The notes beneath the pieces were generated by a model. It was not told the origin of the DNA. It made no database searches and worked only from the letters and a program-made list of their open reading frames with translations. From Escherichia phage Ptacy1532, in the sequence record PQ863255.1: a DNA stretch of 64,000 nt; one strand, written 5' to 3'. Positions 3,336 through 64,000 of the stretch are shown here, piece after piece. The position numbers and the translations under genes are program-made. Numbering within the stretch: position 1 is the stretch's first letter; the number at the start of each line of letters is the position of its first letter.

Positions 3336-5579
3336 ATGGCTAAGCAAAAATATAGTGAAGAGGTGTTGGACGAGTTACGTGTTGACCTTCAACGTCGTTT
3401 TAATTATGCTCAAGGCTACGTAGATATGGCTGTTAAGGGCTATGCTCGTGAAGCTTGGGAATATTTCTATGGTAACTTACCTGCACCAGTAACTGCTGGC
3501 AGCTCTAGTTGGGTAGATCGTACTGTTTGGGAATCTGTTAACGGTACATTGCAAGATATTATTAACGTATTCTGTTCTGGTGATGAAGCAGTTACTTTCG
3601 TAGCTGACAACCAACAGGATTCTGATGCTGCTGATGTAGCAACTAAATTAGTTAACCAAATTCTTCTGCGTGACAATCCGGGATACAACATTATCTCTTC
3701 TGCTGCACAAGAATGTCTGGTTACTCGCAACTCTTTTATCAAATATTATTGGGATGAGCAAACTTCTACTCAAACTGAGGAAGCTGAAGGTGTACCACCG
3801 GAAGCATTGGCTGCATATGTTCAGGGGTTAGAAGCTGGTGGACTCAAGAATCTGGAAATCTTCACTGAAGAAAATGAAGATGGTACAGTAGATGTTAAGG
3901 TTACTTATGAGCAAACTGTCAAACGTGTGAAAGTTGAATATGTTCCTTCAGAGCAAATCTTTGTTGATGAACATGCTACCTCTTTTGCAGATGCACAATA
4001 CTTCTGTCATCGTGTACGTCGTTCTAAAGAAGATCTGGTTGCTATGGGCTTCCCTAAAGATGAGATTGAAGCATTCAACGACTGGACAGACACGATGGAT
4101 ACTACTCAATCTACAGTTGCTTGGTCTCGTACTGACTGGCGTCAGGATATTGATGCTGATATTGGTACAGATACCGAAGATATCGCTTCTATGGTTTGGG
4201 TTTATGAGCACTACATCCGTACTGGTGTTCTAGATAAAAATAAAGAGTCTAAACTCTATCAGGTTATTCAAGCTGGTGAGCATATCCTTCACACTGAAGA
4301 AGTAACTCACATTCCGTTTGTAACCTTCTGCCCGTATCCGATTCCGGGTTCCTTCTATGGTCAATCGGTCTATGACATTACGAAAGATATTCAAGATTTA
4401 CGTACCGCGTTAGTTCGTGGTTATATTGATAACGTCAACAATGCTAACTATGGTCGATACAAAGCTCTTGTTGGTGCATACGATCGTCGCTCTCTGCTTG
4501 ATAACCGTCCCGGTGGAGTGGTTGAAATGGAACGTCAGGACGCTATTGACCTGTTTCCATACCATAACCTACCTCAAGGTATTGACGGCCTCCTAGGTAT
4601 GTCTGAGGAGCTTAAAGAGACACGTACAGGTGTAACTAAACTTGGCATGGGTATCAACCCTGATGTGTTTAAGAATGATAACGCTTATGCAACCGTAGGT
4701 TTGATGATGAATGCTGCACAGAACCGTCTCCGTATGGTATGTCGTAACATTGCTCATAATGGTATGGTTGAATTGATGCGTGGTATTTACAATCTTATCA
4801 GAGAAAATGGTGAAGTTCCTATCGAGGTACAAACCCCTCGTGGTATGATTCAGGTAAATCCAAAACAATTACCAGCTCGTCACAACCTCCAAGTTGTTGT
4901 AGCTATCTCTCCTAATGAGAAAGCAGAACGTGCACAGAAACTGATTAGCTTGAAACAGCTGATTGCAGCAGATGCACAGTTAGCACCTCTCTTTGGTTTG
5001 GAGCAAGACCGTTACATGACTGCACAGATCTTTGAGTTGATGGGTATTAAGGACACACATAAATACCTTCTGCCTCTGGAACAGTATCAGCCTCCAGAAC
5101 CTTCTCCGATGGAAATCCTCCAGCTTGAGATGACTAAAGCACAGGTTGAGAACGTACAGGCTTCTTCTCAGAAGATGATTGCTGATGCATTCGACCAACG
5201 TGAACGTACTACATTCGAACAGCAGAAAGCTGCGGATGAATTAAGTCTGCGTCAGGAAGAGTTGCAGTTCAAGCAAGAAAATGCAGCAGATGCTATGACT
5301 CTGGAAAACCGTAAAGAAGATAACAATGCTACTCTGGAACAAGCTAAACACAAATTAGCTCTTATGCAACAGCAGGTCCGTCAGTATGAATCTGTACTGA
5401 AAGAATTGCAGATGGTTATGTCTCATCAGGTAGACCAAGAGAAGATTGTTCAGCAATCTCGTGTTCAGGATAAAACTTTGGAACTCCAAAAGAAAGAAGC
5501 TAATGTACCTAAGAAAGAGCAACAAGCTACTCTCAAAGATTCACGGATTCCAGGCAAACGTCTTGGAAGTAAAAACTAA
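3336..5579 (+). CDS. portal protein (putative)
   Basis: 747-aa ORF directly downstream of terminase and upstream of scaffold and capsid; C-terminal coiled-coil; assignment by synteny and size. Confidence 0.6.
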   Translation: MAKQKYSEEVLDELRVDLQRRFNYAQGYVDMAVKGYAREAWEYFYGNLPAPVTAGSSSWVDRTVWESVNGTLQDIINVFCSGDEAVTFVADNQQDSDAADVATKLVNQILLRDNPGYNIISSAAQECLVTRNSFIKYYWDEQTSTQTEEAEGVPPEALAAYVQGLEAGGLKNLEIFTEENEDGTVDVKVTYEQTVKRVKVEYVPSEQIFVDEHATSFADAQYFCHRVRRSKEDLVAMGFPKDEIEAFNDWTDTMDTTQSTVAWSRTDWRQDIDADIGTDTEDIASMVWVYEHYIRTGVLDKNKESKLYQVIQAGEHILHTEEVTHIPFVTFCPYPIPGSFYGQSVYDITKDIQDLRTALVRGYIDNVNNANYGRYKALVGAYDRRSLLDNRPGGVVEMERQDAIDLFPYHNLPQGIDGLLGMSEELKETRTGVTKLGMGINPDVFKNDNAYATVGLMMNAAQNRLRMVCRNIAHNGMVELMRGIYNLIRENGEVPIEVQTPRGMIQVNPKQLPARHNLQVVVAISPNEKAERAQKLISLKQLIAADAQLAPLFGLEQDRYMTAQIFELMGIKDTHKYLLPLEQYQPPEPSPMEILQLEMTKAQVENVQASSQKMIADAFDQRERTTFEQQKAADELSLRQEELQFKQENAADAMTLENRKEDNNATLEQAKHKLALMQQQVRQYESVLKELQMVMSHQVDQEKIVQQSRVQDKTLELQKKEANVPKKEQQATLKDSRIPGKRLGSKN

Positions 5580-62256: not shown

Positions 62257-62469
62257 TTAACAGGCGTAGTTACGTAGGTATACATGCCGATCTCTCAGCA
62301 CCTCACCAAGAAAAGATTTGTAATCTTCTGTTATGCCAGAATAAAACTTCTCTTTAGCTTCTTCTTCGGACACTTTCCACAACTTAGAAAGTTGGTTGAA
62401 CAAGATTTCCTCTGAGGAAAACAGTAGATAGGCATTCTGTATGAGTATGTCTTTCTCTTCTTGAGTCAT
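62257..62469 (-). CDS. hypothetical protein (70 aa)
   Basis: ORF in early operon. Confidence 0.4.
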   Translation of the reverse strand: MTQEEKDILIQNAYLLFSSEEILFNQLSKLWKVSEEEAKEKFYSGITEDYKSFLGEVLRDRHVYLRNYAC

Positions 62470-62478
62470 AGACCACCC

Positions 62479-62724
62479 TTACATTAGAGTTAAGATGATC
62501 TCTGCTTTGGCAAACTTCTCACCAACTTCAAGAGTGTCAGAAACAGGACGAGGTTCGCCTGTGCCTAAATTAACTGCTCTGCGATATCCACCAGATAGAG
62601 GCATCATCAAATAAATGACCTGACTGTCATCATCTTTTAAAGTAAAGATGTCAGCGATCGCTAGATCTTTAACAAAGAGTTTCTTTTCTTCTTCATGATG
62701 AACTTTGATATGTATTGTGCTCAT
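62479..62724 (-). CDS. small early protein, paralog family member 4
   Basis: 81 aa; shares length and spacing of hydrophobic/Gly positions with the three upstream genes (weakest member). Confidence 0.4.
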   Translation of the reverse strand: MSTIHIKVHHEEEKKLFVKDLAIADIFTLKDDDSQVIYLMMPLSGGYRRAVNLGTGEPRPVSDTLEVGEKFAKAEIILTLM

Positions 62725-62726
62725 GC

Positions 62727-62978
62727 CTACTCCTGAACCACTGACATACGAATCATTTCTACCTGATCATCAAGACCTTTAACAGATAATACACCTGTGG
62801 AAAGGTTTATCACAGGAACCCAGCCACTGGCTATGCGAATGTTACCAGAAGCATTTTCAACCCTCATGTAATACTGAGGAGAAGCACTTCCGTTCTGAAC
62901 TACGAAGGGGTTTCCGGGAATGATTGTTTCCAATCGTACCGTATTATCCTTTTTCTTAGGGATGATTTTCATTAGCAA
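62727..62978 (-). CDS. small early protein, paralog family member 3
   Basis: 83 aa; VRLETIIPGNPF...IRIASGWVPV pattern. Confidence 0.4.
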   Translation of the reverse strand: MLMKIIPKKKDNTVRLETIIPGNPFVVQNGSASPQYYMRVENASGNIRIASGWVPVINLSTGVLSVKGLDDQVEMIRMSVVQE

Positions 62979-63220
62979 TCACTCACTAAAAGTTCTGCCG
63001 ACACAGGAATAACTTGGCACCAGCTAGACGGTGCTGTTACGTTACCATCAGATAGACGGAGAGAGAGTACTCGATCAGAGTTAACGGTTACATTAGGACT
63101 TTCAGATACAGTCCCTTTGACATAGAGAGTAGCACTCTCGGGGAATTTAAACACTGCTCCGCTGGGAAGGGTGTTGAGATCAACCTTGGTCACTTCTTCT
63201 TTCTTGTGAGTAATCTTCAT
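62972..63220 (-). CDS. small early protein, paralog family member 2
   Basis: 82 aa; VDLNTLPSGAVFKF...RVLSLRLSDGNV...QVIPV aligns with member 1. Confidence 0.45.
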   Translation of the reverse strand: MKITHKKEEVTKVDLNTLPSGAVFKFPESATLYVKGTVSESPNVTVNSDRVLSLRLSDGNVTAPSSWCQVIPVSAELLVSDC

Positions 63221-63471
63221 TTAGAATCCTTAATAACGTTAGCTTCAACCTTAACAGGAATAACAGAGATGCCCTCAACGGGGCCACTTAAGTGTCCATC
63301 TTCCAGTCTGACACACACGACTCGATCTCGTGCAACTTCTACCCAATTAGTAGATGCCGCAGTACAGACCATATGAATTGGACCGTTCTCTTCCAGCCGG
63401 AAGGTATCGCCCTTCTTCAGAGTGTGGAGTTTCACAGTCTTGATAGTTTTGTTCAATTCGTTAACTTTCAT
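63217..63471 (-). CDS. small early protein, paralog family member 1
   Basis: 84 aa; VKLHTLKKGDTFRL...RVVCVRLEDGHL...SVIPV. Confidence 0.45.
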   Translation of the reverse strand: MKVNELNKTIKTVKLHTLKKGDTFRLEENGPIHMVCTAASTNWVEVARDRVVCVRLEDGHLSGPVEGISVIPVKVEANVIKDSK

Positions 63472-63479
63472 ATTGATTC

Positions 63480-63791
63480 CTATTTAAGTTTCAGGCTAAT
63501 ATTAAGGTGCATACATGCCCTGTTCTGTACAGCAGCATAGCTTCTACCGAGCATGTCAGCCATTCTCTGAATAGGCATGAACCCAGCATTACGGATAAGG
63601 AACTGATCTTCTTCTTCAGACCACTTAACTCGGATTGAAGCTCTTGATATTCCGAACTTAGTGCAAGCTGTGTTAACAGCATTCTCCGTTACATTCATAA
63701 TCTGAGCAACTTCTTTAACCGAGTACTCTTTGATTAATCTCCGAAGATTTTCAATCTGCATCGGAGTCCATATAGTTCTTCGCGCTTTCAT
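63480..63791 (-). CDS. HTH DNA-binding protein (putative early regulator)
   Basis: 103 aa; two HTH-like segments (VKEVAQIMNVTENAVNT and IQRMADMLGRSYAAVQNR); first gene of minus-strand operon; ends with TAG stop. Confidence 0.45.
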   Translation of the reverse strand: MKARRTIWTPMQIENLRRLIKEYSVKEVAQIMNVTENAVNTACTKFGISRASIRVKWSEEEDQFLIRNAGFMPIQRMADMLGRSYAAVQNRACMHLNISLKLK

Positions 63792-64000
63792 ATACCCTCC
63801 AATTAAAAAGAAGAAAACTATCAGGGGAGTACACTAGCTCTGGGCCACGCTGTAGACATCGGCCTACCTTCCACAGCTAATCAGCTAATGTACTCTCCTA
63901 ATAGTTTATGAATAGGGGGAGGGGACGAATCCTCCCATATCCTATTAATTAATATTGCATGTAAGATCTAACAATCGGTTGCCTTTGTAGGAATAAGCGT

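Follow-up and report, generated by a model that had tools for sequence, protein, structure and literature searches.

Four adjacent small genes in the DNA stretch analysed here (64,000 nucleotides of Escherichia phage Ptacy1532, record PQ863255.1, hereafter the window) are, judging by their sequences, all paralogs of one another. Denoted A to D, they occupy positions 62479-63471, and their relationship is strong for A and B, clear for C, and distant but significant for D. A single gene, encoding a single-domain protein of ~80 aa, gave rise to the array through tandem duplication followed by divergence. The best explanation is that the products are SH3-like early proteins that may act as stoichiometric binders of host proteins, a reading to which we assign a probability of about 0.5. 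Annotations as hypothetical proteins and entries in PHROGs already existed for the four genes; this analysis adds the paralogy of all four, their link to four further copies, and the union of eight PHROGs, including that of gp21 of coliphage N4.

The window matched 88 phage records, almost all of them Escherichia and Shigella phages, and from the annotations of these records the source phage is a Kuravirus (Gordonclarkvirinae), a phiEco32-like podovirus of the C3 elongated-head morphotype. An N4-like affiliation, suggested at first by match names such as NJ01 and ES17, was rejected on the taxonomy of the matches. The closest complete genome was that of vB_EcoP_WFI101126 (hereafter WFI101126), with 98% identity, in which record position 62868 corresponds to window position 62400. 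The window covers most of the genome, whose right end lies ~13 kb beyond the window end (64000). The first-pass annotation had placed the array at the start of the early operon, directly after the first helix-turn-helix (HTH) gene. The array does lie directly downstream of an HTH gene (63480-63791), but "start" and "first" are artefacts of the window edge: the operon seemed to begin there because the window simply ends at 64000, and in WFI101126 ~30 further genes continue upstream of the array on the same strand. The four genes thus appear to sit inside a long leftward early gene cluster rather than at its start.

The early class of phiEco32 has been experimentally defined (PMC8948821, PMC9965538), and most genes of its cluster are described as having no known function and a probable role in host takeover (PMC8948821, PMC9965538). 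The early class comprises CDS 69-125 in SU10 (PMC4281155) and gp82-122 in YF01 (PMC9965538, PMC8948821). The counterparts of A-D are approximately SU10 CDS95-98 and phi32_95-98, and their position relative to the published phiEco32 classes indicates that A-D probably belong to the early class. For SU10, a close relative, the phiEco32 analogy predicts early sigma70 promoters both upstream of CDS125 and within the 120/121 spacer (PMC4281155).

The HTH gene is preceded by a non-coding intergenic gap of 356 nt, which runs from 63792 to 64000 in the window and to ~64150 in the complete genome (locus L019, 259-614, minus strand). The gap folds unusually well as RNA (z=-5.0). It showed no Rfam match, no consensus terminator and no consensus sigma70 site on its minus strand; as this is the correct strand, a promoter directly preceding the HTH gene was not supported. 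An imperfect hairpin of ~85 nt within the gap (window ~63805-63890), single-copy in the window, is an indel between phages: it was present in the window, WFI101126, ES17, Bas90 and 1-6bf, and missing from 172-1, Bas89, Bas91, YF01 and NJ01. This hairpin may represent a terminator, an RNase III site or a small mobile palindrome. The gap is also an insertion hotspot, which contains a 73-aa ORF in phiEco32 (phi32_100; locus L007, 1226-1447) and Paul (gp104; locus L010, 1458-1679), and in 1-6bf a sequence with a tRNA T-arm-like motif (GGTTCGAATCC; locus L012, ~1542-1680).

All four array genes are encoded on the minus strand, at exactly the interval given by the first-pass annotation. Read from the HTH gene, they are A (63217-63471, 84 aa) and B (62972-63220, 82 aa), both in PHROG 7832, C (62727-62972, 81 aa from its ATG), which belongs to PHROG 7431, and D (62479-62724, 81 aa), the most diverged member, which belongs to PHROG 12612. 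A and B overlap by 4 nt, B and C overlap by 1 nt, and C and D are separated by 2 nt. A Shine-Dalgarno-like motif stands before each gene (AGGA, AAGGA, GTGAG and AGGAG), and the four are translationally coupled. The ATG start of C is supported by its orthologs, every one of which begins with MKIIPK, and the TTG at 62978 is an unlikely alternative. The HTH gene, on the same strand, ends 8 nt upstream of A and encodes a 103-aa double-HTH protein (Sigma70_r4_2 / Myb-like; phrog_323, "D5-like transcriptional regulator") that is not a member of the family. Just downstream of D, a 70-aa ORF (62257-62469, minus strand) is variably present: it is annotated as gp100 in WFI101126 and has a same-sized counterpart in 1-6bf, while most other Kuravirus matches begin only at window ~62475-62490, past this ORF. 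It matched neither the family profile nor any PHROG.

The first-pass annotation had proposed four diverged paralogs, and profile-profile comparison bore this out. For A and B, BLASTP alone was sufficient (33% identity over 76 residues, E=2e-14), and the motifs that had been aligned between them are present exactly as written. BLASTP matches of C were weak (E=0.018 with A, E=0.003 with B). We therefore turn to profiles: 108 relatives were gathered and sorted into four ortholog groups, and comparison of the group profiles by hhalign gave E-values of 1.6e-10 for A-B, 1.4e-4 for A-C and 9e-4 for B-C. Furthermore, the independently built profile phrog_8365 matched A (8.5e-9), B (6.9e-4) and C (1.8e-4), and phrog_6570 weakly matched the same three.

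The placement of D rests on the wider family. D could not be aligned with A or B by BLASTP, and the ABC profile reached it with E=0.007 and 5% probability in hhalign, in a collinear alignment. A second profile was built from distant members only, which had been recovered by searching exhaustively with the ABC profile in HMMER. This distant-member profile matched the D family with 87-88% probability and E=3-4e-6 over 53 collinear columns, and in the shuffle control none of 200 column-shuffled D alignments reached the observed score of 31.8 (maximum 17.0, mean 9.9, SD 2.2). The same profile matched A (8e-23), B (3.5e-20) and C (1.3e-18), values that are partly circular in that A-C seeded the search, whereas the match to D (3.9e-6) is independent of the seeding. 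When all 643 ORFs of 40 aa or more from the six frames of the window were scanned with the distant-member profile, D ranked fourth (E=0.047), the next ORF scoring 1.7, and no fifth family member was found. In addition, many Kuraviruses carry at the D position an allele, D' (phi32_95, Bas90_0091), that also belongs to PHROG 12612 and is ~47% identical to D. D' was recognised by both the D profile (2e-30) and that of the family (5e-8), and it cross-matched PHROG 7431 (1.4e-4) as well as 6570 and 8365.

The family extends well beyond the Kuraviruses. A first search for relatives reached only close Kuravirus relatives, and the distant members came from the exhaustive search of representatives. With the ABC profile, that search yielded 92 representative clusters at E<1e-3, nearly all of them full-length proteins of 70-90 aa; the family accordingly comprises at least 92 representative clusters and is widespread in lytic phages. 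In tblastn searches with distant members, P0136 reached PaP3-like Pseudomonas phages, near the left end, and one Vibrio phage, P0123 reached only Kuraviruses among GenBank phages, and P0193 and P0121 had no match among GenBank phages. Foldseek matches in BFVD to the model of A included PaP3 ORF.65, N4 Gp21, proteins of T4-like, Ackermannviridae and other phages, and many uncharacterised phage proteins.

N4 belongs to the Schitoviridae, a different family from that of the phage studied here. Its gp21 matched the family profile with E=1e-15 and, like C, belongs to PHROG 7431 (2.2e-24); with 74 aa it is of the same length class and carries the same motifs. It also matched the model of A structurally (BFVD E=2e-4, TM 0.67-0.75), and its gene is placed among small genes upstream of the replication genes. 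The gene is single-copy in the first 20 kb of N4 that were scanned, in contrast to the eight copies of the Kuravirus type. We found no literature on the function of N4 gp21, and the match to it adds no mechanism.

Besides the PHROGs of A-D, other Kuravirus copies fall into PHROGs 6570, 9955, 16423 and 10911 (the last being that of phi32_98), and PHROG 8365 forms a bridging group through its cross-matches. The profiles of all eight (7832, 7431, 12612, 8365, 6570, 9955, 16423 and 10911) match one another. PHROGs treats them as separate families, all of "unknown function"; joined here and given a predicted fold, they constitute one uncurated SH3-like superfamily of ~80-aa phage proteins. No Pfam family was found for A-D at E<=1 and none was consistent among 91 members, and NCBIfam, PADLOC and PDB sequences gave no matches for the A-D family; no curated anti-defence match was thus obtained from Pfam, PADLOC or NCBIfam.

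WFI101126 carries eight family members in three clusters: gp101-104, which correspond to the four genes of the window, gp109, and the tandem run gp125-gp126-gp127. The four further members lie upstream, outside the window (in locus L019, gp109 at 1134-1355, gp127 at 4272-4490, gp126 at 4491-4745 and gp125 at 4735-4971). Bas90 gave about ten matches to the family profile. An unrelated, wholly unannotated metagenomic phage contig of 17.9 kb (SRR32548263_301002) contained three tandem members (locus L017, 5057-5752; E-values of 1e-16, 5e-10 and 7e-10), and P0129 is a fusion of two family domains. The repeated tandem sets and the two-domain fusion suggest that tandem amplification is a recurrent habit of the family.

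The AlphaFold model of A (pLDDT 87.8) is a generic SH3-like small beta-barrel, five-stranded and closed, that superposes on known SH3-like domains. The model of D is of modest quality (pLDDT 70), and the fold of D is predicted mainly from its sequence. Positions conserved across the family are an N-terminal MK[IV], G-D-x-F, Y-M, V-N-L-x-T-G and V-x-P-V, none of which is a polar residue of catalytic type. A, B and C carry most of these motifs, with VEMI instead of V-x-P-V in C. D keeps the VNLGTG hairpin motif and IYLM, has IADIF in place of GD.F, and lacks V-x-P-V, departures that mark it as a diverged member. We read the conserved motifs as the core strands and turns of the barrel, on the basis of strand positions in the model rather than a residue-by-residue mapping. 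Within ortholog groups, substitutions cluster at about residues 37-50 and 60-69 of A, which form two loops, and the strands are invariant.

The model resembles several known SH3-like barrels, including the ribosomal L2 C-terminal domain, EF-P/eIF5A domain I / KOW, Tudor/PWWP, the DtxR C-terminal SH3 domain, FeoA and the VapX antitoxin. However, these domains share only 5-20% sequence identity with the A-D family, with no Pfam match and no common functional motif. The resemblance is therefore one of fold class only and carries no functional assignment. As for Tudor-like domains that interact with RNA polymerase (CarD_CdnL_TRCF/TRCF-RID, UvrD C-terminal), the family showed neither sequence membership nor a close structural match.

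The family consists of small, single-domain proteins that lack enzymatic signatures, are probably encoded on an early transcript, differ in copy number between near-identical phages and vary mainly in loops of a stable barrel, a profile that would be expected of stoichiometric binders. In our model, each copy would be made early in infection from the long early transcript and would act as a small stoichiometric binding module, which would bind a housekeeping or defence protein of the host and block or redirect it. The variable loops would set the binding specificity, so different copies may have different targets. We infer both this binding function and its targets; nothing in the profiles, structures or literature ties the family to any function, and the literature searched contained no functional data on any family member. 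That they serve host takeover or anti-defence as small binders expressed early is plausible, and their small size, early position and presence/absence variation fit this idea. More tentatively, the superfamily may serve as a diversifiable "binder scaffold" whose tandem copies and two variable loops neutralise different host defence or housekeeping proteins; we regard this broader proposal as possible but speculative. If true, it could help explain why, as noted by BASEL, Kuraviruses resist restriction-modification (RM) systems without known inhibitors, a resistance that it does not tie to the A-D genes (PMC11990801).

The main rival to the binder model is that the proteins are small regulators that bind nucleic acid or RNA polymerase, with KOW, Tudor or Sm-like barrels, and tune phage or host transcription or translation in concert with the HTH regulator next to them. 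In its favour are the types of SH3-like domain that were recovered and the adjoining HTH gene. However, the predicted pI values are mixed (A 8.7, B 5.7, C 9.2, D 5.5; family median 6.3); the family is not uniformly basic, which counts against a generic role in nucleic-acid binding, and conserved surface residues are absent. We consider such a regulatory role rather unlikely.

The array varies among Kuraviruses. We compared 15 loci, namely 14 related loci and the window's own interval, over the span from the HTH gene to a conserved 117-nt gene (the phi32_94 homolog). The arrangement A-B-C-D was found in the window, Paul and WFI101126 (with B truncated), A'-B-C-D in 172-1, A-B-C-D' in Bas90, B-C-D or B-C-D' in NJ01, YF01 and 1-6bf, gp98-B-C-D or gp98-B-C-D' in phiEco32 and ES17, A-C-D' in Bas89 and Bas91, and C with a truncated D in a KBNP1711-like locus. 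A is the variable member, being absent from phiEco32, NJ01, ES17 and YF01; B is absent from Bas89 and Bas91, and C was present in every Kuravirus locus examined. In WFI101126, gp103 (locus L001, 6649-6819), the counterpart of B in the window, has lost 2 nt from a CTCTCTCTC run and encodes only 56 aa, whereas B is intact in the window. This frameshift reflects either natural inactivation at a slippage-prone site or a sequencing error in WFI101126.

Among orthologs, each of A-D had a median dN/dS of 0.17-0.19 and the HTH gene one of 0.064, so the orthologs are overall under purifying (dN/dS ~0.18) rather than diversifying selection. Between phages, dS was 0.7-1.3 for A-D against 0.21 for the adjacent HTH gene. 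This several-fold excess suggests that old alleles were moved in by recombination rather than inherited by simple vertical descent. It would also suit the view that these duplicates are redundant or decaying and have scant function, if any, being selfish or neutral filler in an accessory region that is prone to recombination and undergoes mosaic exchange, as would the presence or absence of A and B among close relatives and the frameshifted B of WFI101126. However, the purifying selection in all four ortholog groups and the wide conservation of the family, which reaches phages as distant as N4, make redundant filler very improbable; C and D/D' were moreover kept in every locus examined, and the Shine-Dalgarno motifs and translational coupling are intact. 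Finally, that only A and B are true paralogs, with C and D alike by chance in size and in a few hydrophobic and glycine positions, might be argued from the faint or missing BLASTP alignments of C and D, the poor match of the ABC profile to D and the deviating secondary structure of the D model (a helix at residues 11-23), but this is largely refuted by the profile matches of C, which also cross-matches phrog_8365, 6570 and 7832, by the shuffle-controlled match of D and its bridging allele D', and by BFVD matches common to the D and A models (A0A7T6ZLB4, the SU7 protein A0A8F3C9H7 and a Cronus protein).

Undiscovered functions in host takeover and anti-defence reside mainly in small early phage genes, most of which are orphan "hypothetical proteins". 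Our analysis gathers eight separately catalogued, unannotated PHROGs into one fold family, found in N4 and PaP3-type phages and in eight copies in Kuraviruses. It should be noted that a multi-copy family of small early hypothetical proteins is real but fairly ordinary, with no surprising mechanism in evidence. The family nonetheless offers a concrete and tractable set of targets: deletion and pull-down experiments are feasible, since E. coli K-12 is a host of Bas89-91. If its members are target-specific inhibitors, they would be useful as a scaffold and could supply new inhibitors; otherwise they form a well-documented paralog family.

Among known systems, the array may be compared with anti-defence or anti-CRISPR (acr) operons that carry an HTH "aca" gene. 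It differs from them in that A-D have no similarity to any curated family, in that the HTH gene lies upstream rather than downstream of the small genes, and in that A-D lie midway along a very long polycistronic early cluster. Like those operons, however, it consists of small, fast-evolving and variably present genes beside an HTH regulator in the early region of a phage genome.
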